DNA of 64,000 nucleotides from Mobula hypostoma (lineage: Eukaryota): positions 117,988,001-118,052,000 of the forward strand of contig NC_086097.1 of the NCBI RefSeq assembly GCF_963921235.1, read 5' to 3'. The notes under the pieces were generated by a model. It worked only from the letters and a program-made list of their open reading frames with translations. It was not told where the DNA came from and made no database searches. Positions 1 to 61,774 of the stretch are shown in pieces. Numbering within the stretch: the first letter of the stretch is position 1; each line of letters begins with the position of its first letter. The translations under genes were made by a program, and so were the position numbers.

Positions 1-375
1 CTGCACAATGTTGTCTGCAGACAAGAAACAATTCATCCTGATGCATTTCAAACTATAGTCAGTGACTTTAACCAGGCCCATTTGAAGAAAACCCTGCCCT
101 ATTATCACCAGCACATAACCTGTTGCACCAAAGATCTCAACACACAAGACCACTATCACAGTACGAAGAAGAGTTCCTATCATTCTTTTCTGTATTTTGG
201 CAAGTCGGATCAATTGGCTGCACGCCTACTACTTGCTTACAGACAGCACCTAAAGAGCAAGGCTCCAGAGATCAGGACAATTAAGAGATGGTTGCAGGAG
301 GCAGAGGAATGGTTACAGGATTGCCTTGGGTCAGTGGACTGGGCCGTGTTCAAGGACCCAAGTGAGGACCAGAAT
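1..375 (+). mobile_element. Rex1/Babar-type LINE remnant (AP-endonuclease region)
   Basis: Translates to HPDAFQTIVSDFNQAHLKKTLPYYHQHITCCTK...FGKSDQ...LQDCLGSVDWAVFK, the typical Rex1/Babar endonuclease C-terminal part. Same family as 58320-58910. Confidence 0.75.
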
Positions 376-992
376 GATTCTATTTCTTCTCTAATCCTCT
401 TACTGGAATCCAAGGATTCATAGAGCACCTGCTTATTTCTTGACTGTCAAACTGGCAATGTCTTCCTTCTATTAGATGCCTACTTTTTATTTTATTTCAA
501 AGTTCTTTGTGTTCCCTTTTGCCTTCCTTTTATTTAAGATCTAAGTACTTGTTATTTGTCTTTTCTTTAGTTTCTGTTTTCCTCACTTACCTGATTCTGG
601 CTTTGACAGGACTATATCCCTCTTCAGTTCTATTGATTACAAATTGTAGATTCTCCATTGTTTTCTCTCTTCATTGGTTTGGTCAGCTCTTTTCTGAAGT
701 TGGCCATTATTCATTCTTTTCTACTTCCTCACACTTTGCATTTTACCCATTTTATTTTCTTAGTCTGGTACCTCCATCCATCAATTTCAGTTCCAACTAT
801 TAACTTTGACTGAGGTGCTTTCCTCACATCTCCTTGTTTTGCTTTATTACCCATAAAGTGATAAATTAACAGTTTTAATTATTCTCATTGTTATTCATTT
901 CTTTTTGTTTTCAATATGAGTGATGTACAGTAGATGGGCTAAATGCAAACAAGTGTTTTTTAATAAGATTGGGTGAGACAAGAACTAGAGAT

Positions 993-1920
993 CATAAGAA
1001 CATAAGAAGTAGGAGCAGGAGTTGGCCATCGGGTCCGTTGAGCCTGCTCTGCCATTGAATAAGATCATGCCTGATCTGACCATGGATTCACCTCCACCTA
1101 CCTGCCTTTTCCACATAACCCTTAATTCCCCTACTATGCAAAAATCTATCCAATATTGTCTTAAATATATTTACTGAGGTAGCCTCCACTGCTTCAATGG
1201 GCAGAGAGCTCTACAGATTCACCACTCTCTGGGAAAAACAGTTCCTCCTCATCTCCATCCTAACTCTACTCTCCCGAATCTTGAGGCTATGTCCCCTAGT
1301 TCTAGTCTCACCTACCAGTAGAAACAACTTTCCCGCCTCTATCTTTCTATGCCTTTCATAATTTTATATTTTCTACAGTATTTCCACTCCTTCTTCTGAA
1401 TTCCAGTGAGTGCAGTCGCAGGCGACTCAATCTGTCCTCATTGTCTAACCCCCTCATCTCTGGAATCAACTTGGTGGACCTCCTCTGCACTGCCTCCATA
1501 GCCAGTATATCCTTCCTCAAGTAAGGAGACCAGAACTGCACACAGTACTCCAGATGCAGCCTCACCAGTACCCTGTACAGTTGCAGAATTACATTCCTGT
1601 TCTTAAATTCAATCCCTCTAGCAATGAAGGCCAACATTCTAGTTGCCCTCTTGACAGCCTGCTGCACCTGCGAACCTACCTTTTGTGATTCATGCACAAG
1701 CACTCCCAAGTCTCTCTGAACAGCAGCATGCTGCAATTTTTCACCATTTAAATAATCTGCTCTTTCATTTTTTCTTCCAAAGTGGATGACCTCACATTTA
1801 CCAACATTGTACTTCATCTGCCAGACCCTTGCCCACTCACTTATCCTATCTATATCTCCCTGCAGACTCTTTATATCTTCTACACAATTTGCTTTTCCAC
1901 TCAATTGAACATCATCAGCA
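993..1920 (-). mobile_element. CR1-clade LINE, 5'-truncated (RT C-terminus + 3'UTR)
   Basis: ORF 1356..1904 has LQGDIDRISEWARVWQMKYNVGKCEVIHFG and LVRLHLEYCVQFWSP. The 3' tail reads cataagaacataagaa on +. Confidence 0.9.
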
Positions 1921-1921
1921 A

Positions 1922-2195
1922 ACTAGGTCACCAATTAAAGGTGAAAGGTGAAATGTTTAATGGGAATAGGAGAGATATGTTCCTCACACAGAATGAGTTA
2001 CCAGTAGAAGTGTAGTGGATGCAGGCTCAATTTCAACATTTAAGAGAAGTTTGGGTAGATACATGGGTGGGAGGAGTATGGAGATGATGGTCCAGATGCA
2101 GGTCAATGAGACGAGGCAAAATGATATTTTGGCACAGACTAGAGGGGTGAAAGGGCCTTTTCTGTGCTGTAGTATTCTACGTTTCTATGACTCTA
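1922..2195 (+). mobile_element. Old CR1 3'-end fragment
   Basis: CR1-like 3'UTR ending gggcctttctgtgctgtagtattctacgtttctatgactcta. Confidence 0.65.
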
Positions 2196-2394
2196 ATAGA
2201 TGCTTCACTGTAGTGATTCTAATCAATTATCGGCTAGTTTTATTATCCTTTAGCTTGACCTCCCCTTTATTTTCCTGATTCTTAATTGCTGAGTTTATGT
2301 AATTTCTAGTAGCTTCCTTCTCTGTTAAAATTAATGTAAACTTTTACATCCAACCTGTGATATAACGCCTACTGGGATGTTAGCCCAAAAACTA

Positions 2395-2880
2395 AGCTTA
2401 AAGTTATGCCCTCTCATATTAGTCATTTCTGCCCTGGGAAAAAAGTCTCCGACTATCTATTCAGGCTAAAGCTCTTATCTTTTTATACATCTCTATCAAG
2501 TCACCTTTAATCTTTCTTCATCCATAAAGAAAAGCCCCAGCTTGCTCAACCTATCCTCATAAGACATGCTCTCTAATCCAGGCAGCAGCTTGGTAAATCT
2601 CCTCTGCACCTTCTCTCAAGCTTCCACATCCTTCTTATAATCTAATGGCCAGAACTGAACACAATATTCCAAGTGTGGTCTTACGAGGGTTTTATAGAGC
2701 TGCAACTTGAACTCATGGCTATTGAACTCAGTCTCCTGACTAATGAAGGCCAACACACCATAGGCCTTCTTAACACCCTATCAGCTTATGCAGCAACTTT
2801 GAGGGATCAATGGACATGAACCCCAAGATGCCTCTGTTCTTCCACACTGATAAGAATCCTGCCATTAACCCCATGTTCTT
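2395..2880 (-). mobile_element. Degenerate CR1 RT fragment
   Basis: ccagaactgaacacaatattccaagtgtggtct is the reverse complement of the RPHLEYCVQFW motif. Confidence 0.7.
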
Positions 2881-2922
2881 CAAAAATTCATAATTAAGAA
2901 TAATTGCACTTACATAGTACCA

Positions 2923-3479
2923 TATACACTCTGCAGCTAATTAACTGGCCACTGAGTGTACGGTAGAGGTCTTCTGCTGTTGTAGACCATCCAGTCCAAG
3001 GTTCAAGATGTTTTGCATTCAGAGATACTCTGCTGCACACCACCATTGTAACACATGCTTATTTGAATTGTTGTTGCCTTCCTGTCAGCTTGAACCAGTC
3101 TGGCCATTCTCCTTTGACCTCTCTCATTAACAAAATATTTCCCCCACAAAACTGCCATTCCTTGGATGTCTTTTTTGCACTATTCTCTGTAAATTCTAGA
3201 GAATATTACGTGTGAAAATCCCAGGAGCTCAGCAGTGTCTAAGATTCTCAATCCAATCTGTCTGGCACCAACAGTTATTTTACGGGCAAAGTCATTCCGT
3301 CCAATTCTGAATTTTGGTCTGAACGACTACTGAACTTCTTGAGTACGTCTGCATACCTTTATGCATTGAGTTGCTGCCATACTGTATGACTGACTGATTA
3401 GATTAATGCAAGTGATTAACACACATGCTTTTACAAGCAGGTGTACAAGTCTAGCTAATAAAGTGGCCTCTGAATGTAT
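2923..3479 (-). mobile_element. Non-autonomous Tc1-like element, copy 1 of 5
   Basis: Ends ggccactgagtgta and aataaagtggcctctgaatgta. Body homologous to 4746-5308, 22072-22620, 42850-43372 and 53400-54760. Confidence 0.75.
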
Positions 3480-4745
3480 GTCCTAAACGATTTCATTGCC
3501 AATGAAACACTTTGTGGAAACTAACCATTGTTGAAATGTTGTAAGTTTCAACTGTACATGTTCCTACAATCAGCAATGAGATAAATGGACTGACGTTCTC
3601 CTTAAGTGATACCTGTGTTAATTAGGGCTGCTGGAGGACCTTCCCTGACATGAGATTATGACATTTGAGAAAGCAGTTGGGAGAGGATTAACATCTCCTA
3701 ATCTTTTTTATAAGCATTCTGACTCGGGTAACAAGGCTATCATCCATGCATACTCTTTCTCTCTCCCCCCCTCATATGTGCACGTGCGCGCGCACACACA
3801 CGCATTTACTGGCGCACCAGATTTGCCAGTGCCAACTATATTGTTTCGTGTTGTCTTGTCTCAGCAGGAGCTCTAATAACTGAAGTGGCACAACACAAGG
3901 TGAGCCTGTACTGCTTAAAAGCGCTCTGTACTTTTAACAGGGAGGAATATTGTTCATTCTAGAACCGGCTCAATTCTTTGGAGTCAGAAGACAATCTTAA
4001 GGAAGATTCTAGGGCAAATGGCACTCCACAGAAAAGAACATGTACCAAGCCATTTCAATGCTGCACGCAAAATCTTTGGAGGCAGGACCAGGTCCACATA
4101 CAGAAGGCAGGAAGTGCTCCCATTAAACTCCCCAAGTAGCAACAAACCAAAAAGACTTGAATATAATGCCACAAAAGTTGAGTGACCTCTCAAGCATGGC
4201 CATTGTCAAGATTAGTGAGTGTGCATTAAAATGACTTGTCTTATCTACCATACAACCACTTCAACTTTGTGTATTTCCCAGCCTGTTCATTATTCAGTAC
4301 CAAAATCTCTAACAATAAGCATTCTTATCTAATACACATCAGTTCACCTCACCTTGTATACGTGGCACTGCTGAAAGCCTCATTTGCATATTTGAAATCT
4401 TGCACACATTATAACTATTCAACATGACATGACATGCACAGAGCACCTATTGAGAAATGTCCTCTTCTCCTGGAGGACATGATTGGCTGTCATCAGAAGC
4501 AGCAGCCACTAAGAGGTATGGTCTTATTTAAATGATGAGATAGGGCTACTGACTGTTGCTGAGGTTAAAGCCAATGGCAATAATGAAGCCCTGCCCAATG
4601 CTCTCACATTAAATGTTGCTTCATAGGTCTTACTTTCCACTCATTTCACTAACTCTTTCCATTTACAACATGCACACATGCATCGAAAGCTACTCTGGAG
4701 CTACTGACAGAACCTCAGGATACCGGCAATGGGGTAAATTTTCCA

Positions 4746-5308
4746 GCTCAGTGTCCACTTTATTAGGTACACCTGTACACCTGCTCATTCATGCAAATAT
4801 CGAATCAGCCAATCATGTGACTGCAACTCAATGCACAAAAGCAGGAAGGTCAGAGGTTCAGTTGTTCAGACCAAACATCAGAATGGAGAAGAAATAAGAT
4901 CTAAGTGACGTTGACTATGGAATGATGGTTGGAGGCAGATGGGGTGATCCGAGTATCTCAGAAGCTGCTGACTTCCTCGGATTTTCACATGCAATAGTCT
5001 CTAGATCTTACAGAGAATGGTGCAAGAAAACAAACTATATCCGGTGTGTGGTGGCTCTGTGGGTGAAAACACCTTGTTAATGAGAGAGGTCGAAGGAGAA
5101 TGGCCAGACTGCTTCAAGCTGACAGGAAGGTGACATTAACACTCAAATAGCCACATATTACAACAGTGGTGTGCAGAAGAGCATCTCTGAACACACAACA
5201 CATCAAATCTTGAAGTGGATGGGCTACAACAGCACAATACCACAACATAAGCTCAGTGGCCACTTTATTAAGTACAGGAGGTACCCAATAAAGTGGCTAC
5301 TGTGTGTA
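4746..5308 (+). mobile_element. Non-autonomous Tc1-like element, copy 2
   Basis: TIR ctcagtgtccactttattaggtac...gtacccaataaagtggctactgtgtgta. Decayed transposase N-terminus (DLSDVDYGMMVGG...SISEAADFLGFSH). Confidence 0.8.
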
Positions 5309-6044
5309 CTTGTGAGAGTAATGCAAAGACATAAGAGGCTTCTGCAGGGATGTTTACCAAGAGTGGATTTGATGAGTTAGGGGCTATGTTGAGTTAAAAG
5401 ACTCATGTATAAATAACTTTTCTTTAAAGTGACAAATCAAGCTAAGTAATAGCAAGCAGTAATGTTTTGCAATTGTGGTAACGGGGAGCTGTTGATTGCC
5501 ACTGTGTTCCATGGCAACAGACAAGCAAGAAATGTCAGCAGCTAGAAGTGCTTTGTTTAAAGTTAATGGCTGGGAATCCTAAATTCAAACACTGTAATGT
5601 ATGATGGAAAAGGGCAGCTTCCTGGACAATCTGCAATAATGCCTTTACATTAAGCACCGTATTACCGGTCAGTGGAGAGGGACTGGAGCACCTGACTATT
5701 ATTTAGGAAACTATAAGAACCTCGATGATAGCTGTGGAGGAGTATCTGCCTTTAAATTTCTCTTGTTGGCACAACACCGTGAAACAGGAGCCGTACAAAT
5801 TGGTGAATAAAGAGGAAAGTAGAAGTAAAAATGAATTAGAGGATAGATGACTTGATCAGCGGCCATGAATTCTTGAAAATGTTATGTGTCGAAGTTAAGA
5901 ACATTTCTTAAGGCCGGAGAGAAATCGAAAGAAGGGCAAAAAAAATCCAGTTGTCATTATTCATGAACACAGTATCACTGTCACCTGAACGTTTATGTGT
6001 AGTTAATATTCATATTCAAAAGCAGAGCAAGAAGGAAAGAAAGA

Positions 6045-8099: not shown

Positions 8100-9200
8100 C
8101 CATAAAATATAAGGCCATAAAACATAGGAGCAGAATTAAACCATTCGGCCCATTGAGTCTACTCTGCCGTTCCATCATGGCTGATTTATAATCCCTCTCA
8201 ACCCCATTCTCCTGCCTTATCCCTGTAACCTTTGATGTCCTTACTAATCAAGAAACTATCAACCTCCACTTACAGTAAAATATCCCCAGTGACTTGGCCT
8301 GGGAATGACTTCCACACTTTCACTATCCTCCAGCTAAAAAAATTCCTCCTCATCTCATTTCTAAAGGGATGTTCTTCTATTCTGAAGCTGTGCCCTCTGG
8401 TCCTAGACTCCCCCATTATAGGAAGCATCCTCTCCACATCCACTCTACCGAGGCTTTACAATTTTTTTTTAGATTATGAGGACACGCAGTCCTCTTTTAT
8501 TGTCATTTAGTAATGCATGCATTAAGAAATGATACAATATTCCTCCGGTGTGATATCACAGAAACACAGGACAGAAAAAGACTGAAAAACTAACAAAAAC
8601 CACATAATTATAACATATAGTTACAACAGTGCAACAATATCATAACTTGATGAAGAACAGTCCATGGCACAGTAAAAAAGTTCAAAGTCTCTCGAATGTC
8701 CCACATCTCACACAGATGGGAGAAGGAAGAAAACTCTCCGTCATGCCCAACTACAGTCCGACTCTGAGTCGTCCAAAAACTTTGAGCCTCCGATCAGCCC
8801 TCTGACACCGAGTCCCGAGCACCATCTCTATCCGAGCGCTTCGACCTCAGCCTCGGTCGCCAGCAGCAGGCAAAGCCGGGGATTTTGGGGCCCTCCCTCC
8901 GGAAGATTCTCGATCGCACAGTAACAGCGGCAGTGAACCGGCATTTCAGAAATTTCTCCAGATCCTCAGTGCTTTCACATCTGTCTCCATCAAATCAGAA
9001 TTGTCCACGGCCCTTATCTAACAGATACGATATCATTTCACCGGAGAGCTGCGCGCGCTGCATTGCACTGCCATCTTCTCCTTCTGCCTGATGATAGGCT
9101 TCAATGAAATTCCACCCCCCCCCATTCCTCTATCTACAGCTAGTACAGGTCCAAAACCATTAAATGTTCCTCATACATTAACCCTGTCATTCCGAGATTA
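8100..9200 (-). mobile_element. CR1 3' remnant interrupted by a SINE-like element
   Basis: CR1 3'UTR (cataggagcagaattaaaccattcggccc) runs to ~8460 and resumes at ~9093 (ataggcttcaatga). Confidence 0.7.
8471..9090 (-). mobile_element. ~620-bp non-coding SINE-like retroposon, copy 1 of 3
   Basis: Highly similar to 36495-37079 and 38383-39060. Sense 5' end gagaagatggc; 3' end gacaataaaagaggactgcgtgtcctcataatc. Confidence 0.85.
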
Positions 9201-14252: not shown

Positions 14253-15699
14253 TTATTATTATTAAACTTTTTTGTATTTGCAGAATTCGTCTTGCAGATT
14301 GGCCTATTATCAGTCTTTATTGTGTGCAGTTTTTCATTGATTATATTTTATTTCTTTGTTCAACTGTAAATGCCTACAATAAAATGGATCTCAGGGTCAT
14401 ATATGGTGCATATGCATACTTCGATTAAAAGATTACTTTGCTCTTTGAACTTTAAAATTTTGAGAAAGAATAGACATGAGTAATGAAGTTTATGTTTTCT
14501 ACTTGCAACTTCAAAGTGCCTTTTATGAAGTATCATATAAGAGAAGAGATCCAGGTTAAAGAATAGTCATTCAAAAGAAAAGATGTTAGAAGGTGATGCT
14601 CCACTGGCATCAGTATTAGGATCATTATTATATCTAATCCCCTTAAACAATTTAATTATAAAACAACAATATCAAAACATTGATGATACAAAATTACGTG
14701 GAACCAATCTCAGTTCTACACCCAAGTACTGATTTTATGCTGGATCACTGACTCTATGCCCTACTAATGTCTTACATTGCAATCCCGTCCTTTATCTTCA
14801 GTCTATTGATTACCCTGACCTTTCTGACCATTGATCATCCAGTTCCCCCCCTTACACATCTAAGCCTATACTGCCCACAACCAACTGGCCTGGTCCAAGA
14901 TCTAACTGATTGTCATTGGGCACTCTGACAAGGAAAGGTTTGAATACAAGCAGCAGATACAGTGGCTCATGACACCCAGGACTAGCATACTGCTGAATTT
15001 CTCACAGGTGGCCCACAAATAAAATGTCTGTTGGACTGCCATGAACCAAATTCTTCTTTATGTGATCTTGAACCGGCCACACATCACTTAACGGGTATAT
15101 CTTTGGTAGTCATACTAGAAGCAGCCCATAGTATCATCAATAAAAATCAGAACTGAATTACTAGAAGATACTGCAGCTTTTCTGAAGACAAGAAAAATAA
15201 TTCAGACTGACCTGACATGTTTTGAATCTTGACATACTGGTCCAGTCAAGTGCTGAGAGAATTTCTTTGCTTCTATGAAAATCTAAAACTAAGAACCAAT
15301 AACAGAAGAAAAGAGCCTAGGTCCATGCTCCTCCTATATTGTTTACTCTTGTACATTAATGATTACAGAATGCTACTTCTTATTCTCATCATAACTAGAA
15401 GGTTTCATCATCTTTGCTGCCAATTTTTACCTGGTTCTCATCTTTCCTTGATATAGTTTTGACTTTTCCTTCCCTTTCTAGGGAGAGCTCAGTGACTGGT
15501 GTCTACCACATGTCCATGAACTTCCACAAAAGCCTAGATACAATTGTAAGGGCTCTGTTTCATTTTCCTGGTTTCCTGTGACTTCTCTATCTGTTCCATG
15601 AAATTGCATGAAAATCCTCCTTTTTCTTCAATAATAGATTTATTAATTTTTTATTGAAATGTTCCACAACTGTGTAAACTCCATTTTTGACAGTTCTAC

Positions 15700-18577
15700 T
15701 CTCTAAAATAGGAATCGCTAACCCGAATTGATTAAGATCAAAAAATTTTCTGAATTGAAACCAAATGCGCAAAGCATATTTAACTATCGGGTTAGAGACC
15801 TGCTTAAGACGTTTCGAATCAAAAGGGAGAGAGGAGCCTAAAATAGAACCAAGTGTATAACCCTGAACCGATTTTAATTCCAATGCTACCCATTTAGGAA
15901 TAGATAGTATATCCTGGTCAAGTAACCAAAATTTCATATGTCGAATATTAATAGCCCAATAATAGAATCTAAAGTTAGGTAATGCTAAACCTCCATCTCT
16001 CTTAGCTTTCTGTAAATGTATTTTACCCAGTCTCGGATTCTTATTCTGCCAAATAAATGAAGAAATTTTAGAGTCAACTTTATCAAAAAAAGATTTTGGA
16101 ACGAAAATTGGTAATGCCTGAAACACATATAAAAATTTTGGCAAAAAAAACATCTTAACCGCATTAATACGACCAATCAAAGTTAAATATAAAGGAAACC
16201 ATTTAGATGAAAGTTGAGTAATATGGTCTATTAATGGTAAAAAGTTAGTCTTAAATAAATCTTTGTATTTACAAGTAATTTTAATCCCAAGATATGAAAA
16301 GTAATTATTAATCAATTTAAATGGAAATTTATAATATAAGGGAAGATGTTTATTAATCGGAAAAAGTTCATTCTTACTAAGATTTAATTTATAACCTGAG
16401 AAAAGACCAAATTGTGCTAATAACTCTAAAACAGCAGGAATGGATCTCTCAGGATTAGAAATATATAAAAGTAAATCATCAGCATAGAGTGATAATTTAT
16501 GGGACTTTAATCCCCGAGTTATCCCAGTAATATTTGAAGATTCTCGAATAGCAATTGCAAGAGGTTCTAATGCAATATCAAATAATAGGGGACTGAGAGG
16601 ACAGCCTTGTCGAGTACCACGAAAGAGAGGAAAAAAAGGTGAGTTTAAAGAGTTAGTACGAACCGAGGCTACAGGGGAGTGATATAACAGTTTAATCCAG
16701 GATATAAATCTCAAGCTAAAATTAAACATTTCAAGCACCTTAAATAAATAAGGCCATTCTACTCTATCAAAAGCTTTCTCGGCATCTAAAGAAATAACAC
16801 ACTCAGGAACATTTTGTGAGGGAGTATAAACGATATTTAACAATGTACGAATATTATAAAAAGAGTAACGACCTTTAATAAAACCCGTTTGGTCCTCCGA
16901 AATAATAGAAGGAAGTACTTTTTCTAGTCTATTTGCTAATAACTTAGAAAAAACTTTAGAATCAACATTTAATAAAGATATTGGTCTATAAGATGCACAT
17001 TGAGCAGGGTCTTTATCCTTCTTTAGTATTAGAGAAATTGATGCTCTATTAAAAGATTCAGGAAGTTTACCAAGTTTCAAAGAAGCCTCAAAAACCCTAC
17101 CGAGCCAAGGAATCAATAAAGAAGCAAAACATTTATAAAATTCAACGGTAAACCCATCAGGGCCAGGAGCTTTCCCCAGATTCATAGAAAAAATAACATT
17201 CTTAATCTCATCCATTGTAATGGAAGTTTCTAATAAGGAAGACATATCCTGTGAAATCTGAGGGAAGTCTAACTTATCTAAAAAATCATTCATATATTTA
17301 GAATCTCGAGGAGACTCTGATTGATATAAAGAAGAATAAAAATCACAAAAGGTTTGATTAATCCCCACATGATCCAGTATCAATCGATCATTTTGGTTAT
17401 AAATCTGATTGATTTGAGATTTAACATAATTAGATTTCAATTGATTAGCCAGCAGCTTGCCAATTTTGTCACTGTGAACATAAAAGTCACTTCTTGTTTT
17501 CTTTAATTGGTTTACAATCGAGGACGAGAGTAGTAAACTGTGTTCCATTTGAAGTTCAGTTCTTTGTTTATATAACTCCTCAGAAGGAGCCATAACATAT
17601 TTCTTATCAATTTCTTTAATCTTGTCCACAATTACCATCTCCTCCTGCTTCTGTTTCTTCCTCAAAGCAACAGAATACGAAATAATCTGACCCCGAATAT
17701 AGGCTTTAAAAGTGTCCCAAAGAGTGTTAACCGAAATATCTTCTGTATGGTTAATTGTAAAAAAAAAGCTCAATCTGTTCATTCATAAAATTAACAAAGT
17801 CCGAGTCCTGAAGCAACAGCGAATTAAAACGCCATTGTCTATTATTCGGTATATTGGCCATAATTTTAATAGAAAGCTTAAGTGGAGCATGATCCGAAAT
17901 GGTTATAGAATCATAATCACATTTAATCACTGAAGAAATAAGACGAGAATCAATGAAAAAATAATCAATTCTTGAATAGGAATGATGAACATGTGAAAAG
18001 AAGGAAAAATCTTTTTCCTGAGGATGCAGAAAACGCCAAATGTCCGTCGACCCAGAATCAGAAAGGAAAAAATTAATCAGATTTGCAGATTTATTAGGTA
18101 AAGTCCGTAAAGGAGCCGAACGGTCCAAAGCTGGAGACAAACAGGTATTAAGATCTCCGCCCCAGATCAATGAAAACTCATTCAAATTCGGAAACTGATC
18201 GAACAATGATTTATAAAATTCCGGACAATCCATATTAGGAGCATAAACATTAACCAAAACTACTTTTTTATTAAATAGTAAACCACTAACCAATAAAAAT
18301 CTACCATTCGGATCAGAAATAATATCCTGTGTATAAAAGTAACTGAGGAATCTATAAAAATAGAGACGCCTCGAATCTTAGCATTGGAGTTCGAATGAAA
18401 TTGTTATCCCTTCCAGAATTTGAAAAAACGTAGTCTGTCCCCCCTCCGTACATGGGTCTCTTGTAAAAATAAAATTTGTGCTTTAAGTCTCCGGAACACT
18501 TTAAAAACTTTTTTCCTTTTAATAGGATGATTAAGACCATTAGTATTCCAGGAGACAAAATTAATAATAGACTCCAT
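15700..18577 (-). pseudogene. L1 ORF2 (AP endonuclease + reverse transcriptase), frameshifted and 3'-truncated
   Basis: Stitched from ORFs 18404..18631, 17751..18293 and 15587..17782. ATG at 18577 (MESIINFVSWN). L1 homology appears to stop after WFQFRKFF...GLAIPIL. Confidence 0.9.
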
Positions 18578-28035: not shown

Positions 28036-28587
28036 CTGTTACTTATTCAACAATGTCTTGTATAACATCTAAGTTCAGTTCAGTCATATTCTATGTGATG
28101 CATAAATATAATTAATAATAATTGTTGCACTGATTTCAGTAGTGATTTCTAGTTGTGTGTGATAACTTTTCCTTTTTTCTAGTATTGTTGCAGTTAATGG
28201 TACACATGATGGGCTGTTAATGGCAGTTTAAGAAGCAAGCAAATCAAGTTCTGTTTTCAATGTTCATCAAAAGCATTGAACATATGTCAGTCTGCTGAAC
28301 TTGAATGCCTGTTTTCTGCCAAGTGATTTCTCACTACTAGCATTGGGCAGGAAGTGCAGCAGTCTTGGGTCCCACACCACCAGGTTCAGGAACAGTTATT
28401 AGCATTCAACCATCAGGCTCCCGAATCAGAGTGGATAACCTTATTCAGCATGAAAGTGAACTGATTACTGAACGCAACTTCACTCACCCCTACACTGAAC
28501 TGATACCACAACCTATGAACTCAATTTCAAGGATACTACAACTAATGTTCTCAGTATTATTTATTCACTTATTTATTATTATTATTG

Positions 28588-29116
28588 TTGTTGTATTTTT
28601 ATTTTCTCTCAGCTCCAGATGGTGAAACCTGAGGTACGGGCGTAGTCAAACATACTCATTTCTCAAATTCGAGGACGTTATGGACTATTCTGGTGATGTT
28701 TAGTTTTGTGGCTTTCTGGAGATTTACATAAATATTGCTGTGTAGACCTGCCTGCCTATTCAGCAGTGAATCAATAGCAGTTCACTTACTGTCACACCCA
28801 TCACTACCACCAGGCACACCCTAGTGAACCCCAGCCAGCGGCTGTATCAGTCATTTCAGTAGACATTTCTCCATTTCAAAAGTGAATGGGTATAGCTTTT
28901 TATACCAACAACCAGGTTTGATTACACCTGCCCCAGTATGGAAAACAGAGGCTGACCAGAGCACCACCCGATCTAGGTACGGAGATGCCTGGATTTGTTC
29001 CTGCTTTGGTCCGATGGGTGGTATTTTATTTCCCACCTGCCCTGCATATCTGCTGTGTTCTCCCCAATCCACCACCCAGGGACGCACCCGATGTGGGACT
29101 GAAAACCCCTCATGTA
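28588..29116 (-). mobile_element. Short non-autonomous R4/Dong-type element (5' leader fused to 3' end)
   Basis: 28588-28750 is homologous to the 3' end of the adjacent R4 element (29120-29282). The rest is a non-coding GC-richer leader. Confidence 0.6.
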
Positions 29117-33660: not shown

Positions 33661-34864
33661 AAATTGAATCACTGGAGTTATGGAGAACAGGACTTCATTG
33701 AGTGAGGATCGGAGCACAGCAGAACTTTGAATGCCTTACAGTTCATAGAGGCTAAAATTAATGCAACTGTTCAGTGGTGTGTAAGAATGGCCACATCTAG
33801 AAATAGCAAAAATACATGTATTCATTTCTATCTCAGTATCTTCCTTATACACTTTCAAATACAATCAGAGTAATCAGGAATTTATTGGTATTGATTTATT
33901 GTCGTCATATATACCAAGATACTATGAAAAGTTTGTCTTGTATGCTATCTATATAGATTAAATCGTGACACAGTGCACTGAACTAGATAAGGTAATCCAA
34001 TTACAATGCAGAATAAAGTGTAAAACTTACCAAAAAAAAGTGCATTGCAGGTAAATGCTAAAGTGCAAGATCATGGAGAGGTAAATTATGAAGTCTAACG
34101 TCTCTCTTATCATACAATAAGTCCATTCAGGAGGGTCATAGAAGCAGAGTTAACAGGGGTAGAAGCTAACTCTGAGCTTATTGGTATGTGCTGTCAGGCT
34201 TTCGTATTCTCTGCCTAGTGGGAGAGGGGAGAAGGGAGAATGTCCGGGGTGGGTGGGGAGTTTGATTATGCTGATTGTTTTACTGAGACAGCAAAAAGCA
34301 CTTGCTATATCAAGTCTTTATGCATCCAGACAGGATGCTTCTGGATTCAAGACTCAAGATTATTTAATGTCATTTCCAGAACACAAATTTAAAGGAGAAC
34401 AAAATAATGGATCCAATGAAGCACTAAAAAAAACATTAATAAGGGAAAGAGCCCTATAAATTAAACAAAAAAAACAAAGAAAAATACCTAAGTTAGCTAA
34501 TTCCATGTGTGGTCTGCCCAAGATGTCATTAGCCTTTTGATCCTTGATGTTGGATGACCTGCTCTCATAAATTTGTATGATCCAGGGTGTTTGGGAGTGT
34601 TGAGTGACCATTTCCATCTGCCATGTCTGCCTGATCTGGATATCATTCACAGTGTGTATTCAGGGCTGAGCAGTGGCAAGTCTTTGCCACTCAGAGATGC
34701 CATATATGGAAATCTGAGTTTATGGATGATCATTGATGAATCATCACAATGATTTAAAGCAAAATCTGCTGCTATTAATTAAAGTCAGTTACTTTGGTTT
34801 CAGCTGATACAGTCAGTTATTGGCAGCTCAACTGCATCCTTTTGTATTTGACTGCTGGTTGCCA

Positions 34865-35395
34865 CTGGATTTCTTTGTAGTGTTTTTCCTTTGTCAGAGA
34901 TTTGTTTGTTGCTTTTAGATGTTTAGAAGTCAAGATGTTAGATGTTTAGAAGTCAAGATGTTGCAAATCTTGACATTGATAAATCTCACCCTGTTATACA
35001 AACGTATTTCTCCTTGAGCTCCAGCAAATAAGTGATTTCTTCCTCTGTCCATAATTCTTACCTTCCTGGGGTTTTTTTCCTCATCTATGACTTCTTCAGA
35101 TCTTTTAGCGTTTCTGAGTTCAGCAAGATAGTGCCTTCTATGTGACCCAGTCCACCCTTCATACTGAATGATTCTTTTTGGAGATGGTGCATGCATGTTC
35201 TTAACCGTCTCTTGCTCCTTGCCATAGTGGCAAGCAGTCAAGTGCAGTTCAAGTCCACTTTCAGCTCAAGTCTTGCCACACTTGTTGCAGGTTGCCTTAA
35301 TAGAGTGGATTGGGTGTTACCTTCTCATGTGTACATGAAAAGCTCCCAGATTTGTCCGGAAACCTTGACAGCCATCCATAGTGTTCTATTGTAAG
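34865..35395 (-). pseudogene. R2 A-clade-like N-terminal DNA-binding region (3 zinc fingers + Myb), decayed
   Basis: Stitched frames: GCQGFRTNLGAFHVHMRR*H / CNKCGKT*AESGLELHLTACHYGK / ACTISK-SFSMKGGLG-HRRH..ELRNAKR / LWTEEEITYLLELKE-RFINVKICNILTSKSNKQISDKGK. Confidence 0.75.
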
Positions 35396-36494
35396 TGTAT
35401 AGCAGCAGCCAATTCTAACAAACTAAATCTGCTGCTGCTGATGATGCACCCTTTGATCAATCCAATGATAATATTCTACAAAGTTGAAGGAATAGATTCA
35501 ATCTGTTATTAGCAAGTAGCAAAACATACAATATGGAAACGATGAAACTTAAGTGAGATTAACCGACGTTAAACACAAATTAAGCGTAACTAAGCGGCCA
35601 ACAAATGATATGACATCTATTGGTCCCCAGTTCCAAAATGCCCAGAACAAAGCATGAATACATAACTTATTCGCTTTGCTTTTCCACTCCCCCATTCACA
35701 AGACTAGTTACCATAATACACACAACAAACGTACAACACTGAATACAATGCAGATAGAAAACAGATACATTGCTCCTGCAAGTACTATCATCTATTTTCC
35801 CAACTCTTACCTGACATTTCCCAGGCTCTTTCTGGGATTTTATGCAAATAAATGCTTTCTATGATTGTTTCCTTTCCCACAATCTGCACTTGATCTCCCT
35901 ATCCATCCCTGTCCCAAGAGGAAATTGTAACTTTTGGGGGAGGCAACTACTTAACCCCATATGTGAAAAGGAAATTGTTCAATTTGATTTCACATTGTAT
36001 CATTATAACCTGAGAATAATAATCATTTTATCTCTGAAGAATGGGTCACTTTGAGTGCCCAGACATCTCTCAGATGCAAGTGTGGTCTGAGAACAGGCAC
36101 AACCTTGTGTTGTTTCTCTTCGAAGGCTTTATGCATTGCTCACTTCAGGTATTACATCATATCATCTTCACAACCACCAGAAATTATGCAGAGATGCTGC
36201 ATTCGATGGCTATAGGACCAAAGGGCACAGCCTCAGAATAGTCAGACATCCCTTTAGAACACAAATAAAGAGGAATATCTTTATCTGGAGGGTGGTAAAT
36301 CTGGGGAATTCTTGATTAGTTGGGGCACCAAAGGTTACAGAGAAGAGACTGGAGAATGAAGTTGAGAGGGATAATAAATCAGCCATGTTGAAATGGAAGA
36401 GCTAACTCGTTGGGCCAAATGGCCTGATTCTGCTCCTATGTCAATGGTCTTATATAATCTAATTGGTGACAAGATGAAAGACAGTCAACATTCG

Positions 36495-37079
36495 CAGCCC
36501 TCTGGTGAAAAAAAATGATATCGTATCTGTTAAATAGGGGCTGTGGACAATTCTGATTTGATGGAGAATGGACGTGAAAGCACAGAGGAACATCTGGAGA
36601 AATTTCTGAAACGTCCGTTTGCTGCTGTCGTTACTGTGCGGTCGGGAATCTTTCGGAGGGTAGGCCTCAAAATCCCTGGCCTTGCCTGCTTTTGGCGACC
36701 GAGAAGGAGGTCGAATCGTTCGGACAGAGGTGGTGCTCAGTACTTGGTGTCGGAGAGCTGAACAGAGCTCGAAGTTTTCCGATGACTCAGAGTCGGATTG
36801 TGGTCGGCATGGCAGAGAGAGTTTTTCTTCCTTCTCCCGTCTGCGAGAGATGTGGGACATTTGAGAAACTTTGAACTTTACTGTGCTCATGGACTTCTTC
36901 ATCAAGTTATGGTATTGTGCACTGTTTGTAACTATATGTTATAATTATGTGGTTTTGTCAGTTTTTCAGTCTTGGTCTGTCCTGTGTTTTGTGATATCAC
37001 ACCGGAGGAAATAATGTATCATTTCTTAATGCATGCATTACTAAATGACAATAAAAGACGACTACATGTCTTCATAATC
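36495..37079 (+). mobile_element. SINE-like retroposon, copy 2
   Basis: Homologous to 8471-9090. Ends gacaataaaagacgactacatgtcttcataatc. Confidence 0.85.
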
Positions 37080-38382: not shown

Positions 38383-39060
38383 ATTGGATTATGAGGACAC
38401 GCGGTCTTCTTTTATTGTCATTTAGTAATACATGCATTAAGAAATTGTACAATATTCCTCCGGTGTGATATCACAGAAACACAGGACAGATCAAGACTGA
38501 AAAACTGACAAAAACCACGTAATTATAACATAAAGTTACAACAGTGCAAGCAATACCGTAACTTGATGAAGAACAGGCCAAGGGCACGGTAAAAAAAGTT
38601 CGAAGTCTCTCAAAAGTCCCACATCTCACGCAGACAGGAGAAGGAAGAAAACTCTCCCTGCCATGCTTCCAGCACTGCAAACTTGCCGATGTAGCATCCT
38701 GGAAGCACCCAACCACAGTCCGACTCTGAGTCATCCGAAAACTTCGAGCCTCTAACCAGCCCTCCGACACCAAGCACCGAGCACCATCTCTGCCGAGCGC
38801 TTCGACCCCAACTCCAGCCGCCAGCAGCAGGCAAAGCCGAAGATTTGGGGCCTTCCCTCTGGAGATTCTGGATCGCACAGTAACAGCAGCAGCAAACCGG
38901 GCATTTCAGAAGTTTCTCTAGCTGTTCCTCTGCACTTCTCACGGCTGTCTCCATCAAATCAGAATTGTGCACGGTACCCTATTTAACAAATACGATATCA
39001 TTTCACCTGAGAGGCTGCGCATGCTGCGTTGCGCCACCATCTTCTCCTCCTGCCATCTTC
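38383..39060 (-). mobile_element. SINE-like retroposon, copy 3 (extra internal hairpin)
   Basis: Homologous to copies 1 and 2, with an added tgcttccag...ctggaagca segment at ~38664-38707. Confidence 0.85.
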
Positions 39061-55029: not shown

Positions 55030-57268
55030 GCACAGCCAACCGCGCCAGCTTCTGGGGTTTAGAATCTGCTCTTGCCCTCCGGTATATGCCTAGCTGGTGT
55101 GGCCCCTTTAAAGACTCTGGCTTGCCCCACTAATCGGCAGCCGTTTTTTGGCACCAGGATTTTAATACTTAAAGAGCACCTGAACTGAGTTTCCGTGAAC
55201 GGCTAGAGTCGGATTGTGTTGAGACGAAGTGTGCTAGAGACTACGATTCTCAAGGTGCCTTGTAGATCCCTGCTGGGGACCGAGCAGCAAGACAGTTAAT
55301 GCCGCTAACGGAACTGTGGATTTGGAAAAGAGCATGGAGGCTGCAACTGCTGAATTGATGAAGAAAATATCCTGTAGGATGAACAGGTCGACGTGAAAGT
55401 GAGTTTGAGATGGAGGAATGGAGTGAAGAGAGTGAGGAAAGGAAACAGAGGTATGAGATGTCAAACTCTAAGGAGTCAGCGGATAAACAAAATAGGATAG
55501 CAAAACATCGGAAAGAAGATGACATTAAAGCAATTATAACACTGAACGAAGACCGAGAGTCTTTTTGTGAATGGAACCCGATTCATTTGATGAAGATAAT
55601 CAACTGACTTATAGGTGAAGTCAAAAGAGCAAAAATTTTACAAAATGGATTGCTACTAGTGATTTGACAGGATAGTGCTCAACGAGGCAAAGTGATAAGA
55701 TTAAACAAAATAGACGGCAAAAAAGTAGAATGCTCAATGCCCAACAATAGAAAGTGGACTAGAGGAGTTATTTCGGGGATATCAACAAAAGTTACTATGG
55801 ATGAGATTAAACAGAACATAAAAGGAGCAAAAATTATTGAGGCCAAATGTTTGCAAGTTAGAAGAAATGGGAAAAAGTGTGATAGTTTATCAGTTATGAT
55901 CAAATTTGATGAAGAGAGATGGCCGACTAAAGTTTATTTAGAGTATATGTGTTATGAGGGCAGAATATATATACCACCATCTTTAAGATGCTTTAAATGT
56001 CAGAAATTCGAGCATATTGCAGCATCTGCAGAGGGAAACAAAGATGTGGAAGATGTGCTGGAGAACATGAATATGGGAAATGTGATGCCGGAGCTAGGCT
56101 GAAATGTTGCAATTGTGGTGAGGAACACAGAGCAGCTTATCAAAGGTGCATTATTAGCAAGAAAGAAGCTGAGGTACAATATGTAAAAGTAACCCAAGGG
56201 ATCGGTTATGCAGAGGCAATGAAAGCATTTGCTGGAAAAAAGAAGGCTGTCAAGCAAACAAATACAGGGAATAATAAACCGATGAACTGTGAGGGTTGTA
56301 ATATGATAAATAAGGATACACTAATTATGAGTAAGAAGGATTTTGTACTGTTTATGGTAGATGCAATTAACTGTTCAGCGCAAACAGACAAAAGAACCAA
56401 AAAAATTAAAATTATAGTCAAGTCTGCAGAAAAAATATCTTGGTATGACAAGGCTCAGGTGGGAAGCTGTCAAACGTACACTAACTGGAGAACCAAACAG
56501 TTCACAGGCAGGAGAGGCAGGAAATTAATGGCTGTATATATATATAAAACAAGGGAATGCAAGGAGTCTTATCACAAATGATCAAGAATTTACAAAATAT
56601 GTACCAGAATTTAAGGAAAAAACCTCAGATTTTATGTTACAAGAAACATGGTTGAAACCCAGGGTAAATGTGCAGAACTCCATTAACAAATTAAGAACAA
56701 CTGTGAGTTGAAAAGAGTTTGGATGAAATGGTACTGTATTTAAAGGAGACGGTTTCTGAAAAAGATGCTTGTCAAAAATTCAGTGACATGGAAAACAGAT
56801 TAACAAGGAGGAACCTATTCCAAAGTTACAAAAGGAAAAAGGAATTTTTTGCAAAGTGAATTATCCACATTCGGATTATAAAATGAAAACATGGAAACAA
56901 CTGTGGAAGAATTTCAAGATCTCAATAAACAACTATAGGCTTTGATTCAAGAAAAGGAAAACTTGGAAATAGTAGATAGAATTGGAAAATAACAATTTTA
57001 AATGATAAGCATGCGATAATGAATATTCTCAAACAAGAAGCTTTTAGTTTTACAAATGATTCAAATGAAATTAATGTAATTTGAGGCAATGCAATTATTT
57101 GGGAACCACATGACAAAATTTGAGAAGGAAAACAATCTGCAGCATTGCTATTTAATGAGCACATACAGCATTTGCAAGTGGAATTATAATTAATTATACA
57201 TCCTGCGGAGGGCAGTAATACGCTTAGATGCGTCTAAACTGCCAGAAATAGGCGAAGAAGAAGAAGAA
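55030..57268 (+). mobile_element. Nimb/I-group non-LTR element, internally deleted
   Basis: ORF1 remnant, start of the ORF2 endonuclease (NARSL...LQETWLKP), 3' stem-loop ggcagt...actgcc and (GAA)n tail. Confidence 0.75.
55409..56520 (+). pseudogene. Gag-like ORF1 with three CCHC zinc knuckles
   Basis: NPIHLMKIIN*LIGEVKRAKILQNG, RGVISGI, YIPPSLRCFKCQKFEHIA-ICRGKQRCGRCAGEHEYGKC...KCCNCGEEHRAAYQRC. Contains stops and one frameshift. Confidence 0.85.
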
Positions 57269-61442: not shown

Positions 61443-61774
61443 CAGTGGTTCCCAACCTCTGGGCCGTGAAGAATGCAGGGGTGCAGCAGTAGCCAGAATG
61501 CACCCAGCACATCTTTAAGAAAAAAGCCGAAATAAACAAGCTAATTAATTAGGTGCCGCCCGACACGTAAATGTTGGTCCAGACCAGAGGCGATGTAATC
61601 AGCAATCGCCTCTCATCTGGGCGGACATTTACATGCCGGGCGGCACTTAATTAACTAACTTGTTTATTTTGGCTTTTTTCTTAAAGATGCGCTGAGTGTG
61701 TTCCAGCTACCGCTGCACCCCTGCATGCTTCGCGGCCCCGTATCAGTCCATGGCCCGAAGGTTGGGGACCAGTG
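61443..61774. mobile_element. hAT (Charlie-type) MITE, almost wholly palindromic
   Basis: TIRs cagtggttcccaacct / aggttggggaccagtg. 8-bp TSD tgctagag/tgatagag. Inserted in a Penelope terminal repeat (61385-61850). Confidence 0.9.

Follow-up and report, generated by a model that had tools for sequence, protein, structure and literature searches.

A decayed fragment with the DNA-binding architecture of lineage-A R2 retrotransposons at a non-rDNA site in Mobula hypostoma

The R2 retrotransposons of lineage A are defined by three zinc fingers in the order CCHH, CCHC, CCHH (PMC7650587), and R2 differs from Utopia in the R2-type Myb domain that follows ZnF1 (PMC13188248). A co-folded ZnF3:2 is a further trait of lineage A. 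Lineage-A R2 has already been published from cartilaginous fish, inserted in 28S. The same paper has 13 chondrichthyan R2 rows, several of them three-fingered, and those with both flanks sit in 28S (PMC13188248).

The locus described here, called the fossil below, lies in a stretch of 64,000 nucleotides that was analysed as a whole (the window, 64 kb). By eye, among the R2 rows of Table S2 of PMC13188248, its closest described relative appears to be R2-1_HSa of Hypanus sabinus, the Atlantic stingray. The fossil resembles this element in the order and spacing CCHH-CCHC-CCHH-Myb, in an unusual C-x4-C ZnF3 with 'DGC' and in the residues 'VKN' before ZnF1; in the Myb domain 23/36 positions are identical by eye to R2-1_HSa and 19/36 to the R2 protein P0006. 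In contrast to R2-1_HSa, the fossil is found outside 28S, has no 5′ end, RT, RLE or 3′ UTR, carries stops and frameshifts, and is flanked by a 12-bp direct repeat. Its parts and borders are as follows.

34,774-35,419, minus strand: putative inserted segment, 646 bp, an internal lineage-A R2 ORF fragment truncated at both ends, with limits set from the flanking direct repeat
35,385-34,812, minus strand: recognisable R2 homology (tblastn, profile and frameshift-aware alignment)
35,314-35,385, minus strand: ZnF3 (CCHH) remnant that lacks the first Cys; like R2-1_HSa it has C-x4-C spacing and 'DGC' (by eye)
35,215-35,289, minus strand: ZnF2 (CCHC) remnant, CxxC...ACH, without the last Cys; it has a stop at 35,268 and ~5 extra codons compared with R2 proteins
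35,127-35,191, minus strand: ZnF1 (CCHH) remnant over three frames, without the second Cys and the last His (by eye); LRNAKR comes next
34,890-35,051, minus strand: R2-type Myb domain remnant (WTEEE ... IN ... KQISDK), frameshifted
34,915-34,962, unstranded: 23-bp tandem duplication within the Myb domain, 2.1 copies, 100% matches
34,762-34,773, plus strand: direct repeat, left copy, 12 bp; candidate target-site duplication, 15/17 identical when extended to 34,757, one mismatch in the related species (34,771)
35,425-35,436, plus strand: direct repeat, right copy, 12 bp; candidate target-site duplication
35,401-35,439, unstranded: inverted repeat, 14 bp, 86% complementary with an 11-nt loop, at the 5′ junction; possible snap-back scar
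35,437-35,850, plus strand (strand presumed): right flank, an older dispersed repeat seen from contig depth
34,462-34,761, plus strand: left flank, single-copy at 80% likeness

R2 homology of the fossil

The original prediction had stitched four zinc-finger and Myb motifs together from minus-strand frames and had assigned them to a fossil lineage-A R2. All four motifs are present, in three frames, as is the 23-bp tandem duplication that it had reported within the Myb helix. Judged by homology, the minus strand at 35,385-34,812 is the decayed ZnF3-ZnF2-ZnF1-Myb part of a lineage-A R2 retrotransposon. The original prediction depended on a significant match to R2 N-termini, and frameshift-aware alignment found one: P0006 gave the best score, 173 (69/169 identical), against 33±4.3 and a maximum of 46 for 200 shuffles. 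The tblastn and profile results agree with the assignment. P0006 matched the window at 35,370-35,068 (E 1.5e-8) and at 35,219-34,812 (E 5e-5), a profile built from 17 R2-like proteins matched the fossil at E 6.5e-10, and the Myb part matched R2 at E 5e-5 by tblastn and at E 1.4e-5 by the profile. The other 16 R2-like proteins scored 42-140, R2 proteins align with the fossil over 87-169 positions, and among the 64 tile-strands of the window the runner-up reached 44 versus 158 for the fossil. The three finger remnants are colinear with the fingers of R2 proteins in the order CCHH, CCHC, CCHH; compared by eye with R2-1_HSa, every finger is short of one or more metal ligands. Two R4-like proteins reach only 37-38 on the fossil when their N-termini are aligned to it with frameshifts allowed.

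A search of 1.84 billion proteins used the longest single-frame reading of the fossil, 145 codons in which X stands for a stop. Of its seven matches, one is a low-complexity repeat protein and five are repeat proteins with C2HC fingers; the seventh, P0006 (E 5e-4, query 6-106), is the sole RT-domain protein among them. Whole-protein E-values placed five of the other six (four C2HC, one low-complexity) above P0006, and to that extent the better host match that the original prediction had allowed for does exist. It did not survive realignment: the four higher-ranked C2HC proteins match only ~20-55 residues, and in frameshift-aware alignment the five C2HC proteins fall to 54-66 versus 173 for P0006 (a comparison that does not include the repeat protein, P0001). 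Frameshift-tolerant scoring thus settles the ranking for R2 over the C2HC proteins. P0006 itself can be assigned to lineage-A R2, with E 3e-107 against R2Tg, 5e-97 against the 9nl2 protein and 2e-38 against the 8gh6/8ibw protein, which we take to be R2Bm.

Several other searches returned little. Pfam at curated cut-offs gave nothing on five single-frame pieces, 0 of 74 candidates passed a word-seeded homologue search with the fossil, and a metagenome scan yielded four loci with no close relative of the fossil among them. Against the PDB, single frames found R2 at E 4.4 at best and missed it in two further searches, with host fingers or noise ranking higher. Outside the fingers and the Myb domain, in regions that evolve fast, seven downstream and two upstream tests for R2 homology all fell inside the shuffle range. 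Rfam gave no ribozyme match; the insert is coding sequence. In a tree of 16 rows, for which 2 of the 17 references were omitted as having no Myb motif and whose references include no named Utopia or lineage-D protein, the fossil forms a long branch in an unresolved fork.

The reference set itself showed two peculiarities. P0008 and P0009 are R2 proteins carried under host-gene names (a turtle phosphodiesterase and a cuckoo enolase-family member), apparently through annotation fusions. The locus L001 is an R2-like element on a 5.3-kb contig with Myb-coding sequence at both ends (48-266 and 4,924-5,293); the end copies, 160 bp, are 99% identical, which corresponds to a head-to-tail or circular unit of ~5.1 kb. 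The contig has no Rfam match and no 28S target motif, its longest ORF is without the Myb motif, and it is possibly a tandem R2-like array without rDNA, or else an assembly loop.

Copy number, decay and surroundings

Logan contigs from 4 of 16 listed runs were mapped to 34,000-36,300 at 80% likeness. One large run (X1, ~96% of it covered) is from the source species and is possibly the source of the window itself, hence not independent; the other (X5, covered whole) is from another study and from a relative that is 2.6% diverged. In X1 one contig covers 34,350-35,762 with 0 differences. Nine of the 12 bins over 34,462-35,385 have a depth of 11.6 and the remaining three do not exceed 15.7, while the repeats on either side of the fossil rise to 92,000 and 5,400. 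Over the same 12 bins the depth in X5 is 9.5-16.6; in both runs the profile is flat apart from short blips. The fossil thus stands at single-copy depth, with no second copy or living parent at ≥80% likeness in X1 or X5 among the matches listed. A sum of contig depths does not equal a copy number, however, rare variants are lost from contigs, and this comparison is blind to copies less than 80% alike. No second copy was found elsewhere in the 64-kb window. In X9, a small run from a third organism, and in X11, possibly an RNA run, no contig covered the fossil; the runs listed included none marked as RNA.

A single contig of X5 carries the orthologue, which differs at 37 of 1,419 letters. It has no 23-bp duplication, two bases are missing at 35,045, and the first stop codon, at 35,319-35,317 in ZnF3, is Lys; the other frameshifts are common to both species. 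The 23-bp duplication, being absent from the X5 species, is recent and private to the source species. Each species thus carries private lesions, and ~five frameshifts, stops and lost ligands are common to both. Differing sites number 18/621 inside the insert and 19/899 in the flanks (Fisher p 0.40), and the 14 codon-placed changes comprise 11 replacements (one of them a stop) and 3 silent ones; nine of the 37 X5 differences lie outside the rows used for these site and codon counts. The fossil decays neutrally in both species, which rules out domestication over this interval.

The fossil also lies away from rDNA, as the original prediction had stated. Rfam gave 0 rRNA matches at gathering score in the 64 kb and, below threshold, only five matches at 25-45 kb, all unrelated; two 17-nt 28S target motifs had 0 matches at ≤3 mismatches. 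The decayed 28S rDNA that would have made the fossil an ordinary orphon was not found in the flanks. The accompanying claim that no RT or RLE is recognisable stands for R2: no R2 RT or RLE was found in the window, where the best RT matches of R2 queries are other LINEs and a ZnK-RLE query scored at most 50. It does not stand for RLE in general. A decayed RLE 3′ fragment (RT end, zinc knuckle, RLE) lies on the fossil's strand at 30,634-29,211; three non-R2 RLE proteins score 852-896 on it versus 34-105 for six R2 proteins, and 216/475 positions are identical to P0025. This piece, 4 kb downstream, was considered as the fossil's own 3′ half and was rejected on these scores. It is a separate insertion and not R2, presumably R4/Dong-like.

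Other repeats in the window may be recorded here. A TTA/TAA-rich stretch adjoins the start of the RLE piece, and at ~28,560-28,750 there is another, shorter 3′ end, which closes with a (CAA)(TAA) run. The window holds LINE ORFs of several types, which we label, as a working assumption, L1-type, CR1/L2-type and other. An L1-type ORF2 at 15,587-18,377 (minus strand) is unusually intact here, with two long open frames of 208 and 731 codons, and zinc-knuckle-rich ORF1/gag-like frames at 55,668-56,581 (plus strand) belong to another non-LTR element. A 279-bp self-inverted element at 61,461-61,738 has arms 83% identical and is MITE-like. A 600-bp repeat occurs three times, 78-85% alike, at 8,469-9,088, 36,486-37,079 and 38,384-39,054, with one copy ~1 kb from the fossil.

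Boundaries and proposed origin

A 12-bp exact direct repeat stands within ~40 bp of each end of the homology, and 15/17 positions agree when it is extended. With spans of 60, 100 and 200 nt, a 12-nt exact match turned up in 5/5000, 6/5000 and 11/1500 random window pairs and in 7/5000, 10/5000 and 1/1500 shuffles. By these trials the chance of such a direct repeat is ~0.07-0.7%, figures that are optimistic since the repeat was noticed after the fact and contains a CTG run. We consider it probable that the fossil is a discrete insertion, made in one piece and with a target-site duplication of 12-17 bp. If the repeat is such a duplication, the insert would be ~650 bp long, starting just before ZnF3 and ending in the linker, and would be tailless; read from the sequence at this putative boundary, the 3′ end has no oligo(A) tail. 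Among 15 of 114 contig joints, none joined across the insert as an empty site would. Within 2 kb there are 51 inverted pairs, among them the 14-bp repeat that spans the 5′ junction; short repeats are found near the 3′ junction.

At the right junction the composition of the minus strand turns from A-rich to T-rich, and the right-flank repeat (35,437-35,850) has an uneven depth of 52 to 5,430 versus 11.6, is seen in all four runs, with listed copies ~80-88% alike, and has no other copy within the window. The left flank, like the fossil, is A-rich on the minus strand, to ~34,500, and could be unrecognised R2 linker; compared with seven R2 proteins it gave no significant match. One plus-strand frame stays open from the left flank across the direct repeat and on into the right; its Cys/His and hydrophobic motifs resemble those at the 3′ end of a Tx1/L1-type ORF2, so that the right-flank repeat is possibly the 3′ end of such a LINE. 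This in-frame reading across the repeat means that the left flank is possibly the other half of an interrupted repeat. Searches for the flanks as one Tx1/L1-type LINE gave no relevant Pfam hit in six frames, no usable atlas hit and 0 PDB hits.

That the fossil is of R2 origin, without rDNA, without a second copy at 80% likeness, common to two species and in neutral decay, we regard as very nearly secure. Our best guess for how it arose, to which we give a probability of roughly 45%, is that the machinery of another LINE copied an R2 RNA back into the genome in a single event. A solitary ORF fragment of ~650 bp (ZnF3-ZnF2-ZnF1-Myb and a little linker) would have been inserted once at a non-rDNA site, before the split of the source species and the X5 relative, the template being an R2 RNA that an unrelated LINE copied in trans. 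Priming may have been internal, at an A/T-rich stretch, and copying may have ended early on the 5′ side, as in tailless retropseudogenes; once inserted, the fragment would have decayed neutrally and without function. A duplication of 12-17 bp fits staggered-nick LINE insertion, and LINE ORFs of several types occur in the window. R2 TPRT requires sequences at the 3′ end of the element (PMC3414825; PMC11371274), and the lack of a recognised R2 3′ end thus favours copying by another LINE. Precedents are the copies, flanked by target-site duplications and truncated at both ends, that derive from LINEs and mRNAs among others (PMC5322556), and short tailed mRNA copies have been described (PMC2831318). 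Against this origin, the insertion site does not fit the therian L1 consensus, and the same source links relaxed trans-mobilisation with L1 of therians rather than with LINEs of fish (PMC5322556).

A same-sized insertion could also have come from repair of a double-strand break by end joining that captured R2 DNA or cDNA, the duplication reflecting a staggered break and the hairpin being a snap-back scar. The missing poly(A) tail and R2 3′ end, the inverted repeat at the 5′ junction, the short repeats near the 3′ junction and the single-copy state of the fossil are all consistent with such an event, which we nevertheless consider unlikely. A clean duplication of 12-17 bp is rather what LINE nicking typically leaves. 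R2 TPRT, too, can produce snap-back 5′ junctions (PMC11371274), so the hairpin does not discriminate.

Somewhat less likely is off-target TPRT by an R2 protein, which would have left a 5′-truncated copy that lost its RT-RLE part by internal deletion or template jump and kept a few 3′-end bases beside a TAGC-like primer site. With its sequence TTAA-TAGC the 3′ junction is loosely similar to the 28S target, but the resemblance is not significant (49, 116, 589 and 1034 of 4264 tiles equal it under four scoring schemes). For avian lineage-A proteins, ~0.1-1% of insertions are candidate off-target ones that share only primer-complementary bases (PMC11371274), and internal deletions and template jumps of R2 are known in vivo (PMC3414825). 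Against off-target TPRT, a 3′ UTR would have no more than ~40 bp of room, in which none could be recognised; what R2 SIDEs retain is the 5′ ribozyme together with the 3′ end, and the middle of the ORF is missing from them (PMC3414825).

The prospects are slightly poorer again for a remnant of a larger R2 copy displaced by recombination or as an rDNA orphon, the rest of which was deleted or decayed, with the direct repeat a coincidence. Incomplete R2 copies do occur outside rDNA in five Drosophila species (PMC2718515), the left flank has an R2-like A-rich minus strand to ~34,500, and no empty site was seen among the joints listed. On the other side stand the absence of any rRNA remnant, and of an R2 RT or RLE, from the 64 kb, although RT and RLE are better conserved than the fingers, and the chance of below 1% for the direct repeat.

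The chances are slim that the fossil descends from an extinct lineage-A R2 of rays that lived outside rDNA at dispersed sites, made long target-site duplications and has left other copies that are now less than 80% alike; if true, this would be a non-specific R2 in a vertebrate, of the very lineage whose precision is being put to use in gene insertion. The chances are slimmer still for the reading favoured in the original prediction, a dispersed non-autonomous family derived from R2 or a vertebrate lineage-A R2 without 28S specificity. The non-rDNA location is in its favour, copies less than 80% alike would escape the contig test, and non-specific R2 is known from flatworms (PMC5035012), a cockroach (PMC7650587) and sponges (PMC13188248). 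Against this reading stands the flat single-copy depth at 80% likeness in both large runs, X1 and X5, where the adjacent old repeat was readily detected at the same threshold. Furthermore, a non-autonomous element depends on its ends, whereas the fossil has kept the middle of the ORF, and R2-1_HSa, the closest published relative, has 28S on its flanks.

There is a negligible probability that the fossil is a host gene or pseudogene with zinc fingers and Myb, or a DNA-binding domain domesticated from R2: C2HC-finger proteins do stand above the R2 protein by whole-protein E-value, and the single-frame PDB searches favour host fingers or noise, but the C2HC matches span one finger and score far lower, and the ~five common frameshifts, stops and lost ligands, with a flank-like substitution rate and 11 replacement to 3 silent changes, refute this reading at the divergence level of the two species.

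Relation to known R2 sequences outside rDNA

By descent the fossil appears to be lineage-A R2 sequence, having both the finger order and the Myb domain. It is not a complete 28S-specific R2, lacking the 28S location and an RT and RLE in one ORF, and it is not part of a non-specific family, since several copies at unrelated sites are not seen at 80% likeness in X1 and X5. It records a lineage-A R2 related to R2-1_HSa in the ancestor of the two species, outside the rDNA array; turnover of the array would have erased it, and its location elsewhere has kept the record. If the duplication is real, the fossil would show that R2 sequence can, in nature, be copied to another place in the germ line of a vertebrate although the 3′ end of the element is missing. 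This is relevant to off-target questions of R2-based gene insertion, yet it is a single event, and the fossil shows neither relaxed specificity, nor a new family, nor domestication.

The known non-specific relatives of R2, namely R2NS-1_SMed and R2NS-1_CSi (PMC5035012), BLAG (PMC7650587) and the sponge R2 homologues (PMC13188248), are like the fossil in having R2-type domains at non-rDNA sites. They are autonomous-type families in invertebrates, however, whereas the fossil is one fragment of which no family is seen. The R2 SIDEs are, like the fossil, short R2-derived sequences, but they insert in 28S and consist of the two ends, with the 5′ ribozyme, whereas the fossil holds only the ORF middle (PMC3414825). 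In a search of mainly open-access papers, we found neither a non-specific vertebrate R2 nor an internal R2 fragment flanked by a target-site duplication.

Tailless retropseudogenes come close in form, being internal RNA-like fragments with no poly(A), an A/T-rich 3′ end and a flanking duplication, for which the fossil has a candidate. They are described for therian L1 at a TT/WAAAAWW site, whereas the fossil has a CTG-rich site, an R2 donor and a mobiliser that is only presumed (PMC5322556). The non-rDNA R2 copies of Drosophila are partial, dead and away from the 28S genes, as the fossil is; they are 1-2% from a live element, whereas the fossil is far older, is in a vertebrate and has no relative at 80% in the run of its own genome (PMC2718515). 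Incomplete R2 copies outside rDNA are thus already known from Drosophila, and the fossil is most likely the result of an ordinary kind of accident. What is new is an R2 homology bracketed by a 12-bp direct repeat, which suggests a discrete insertion.
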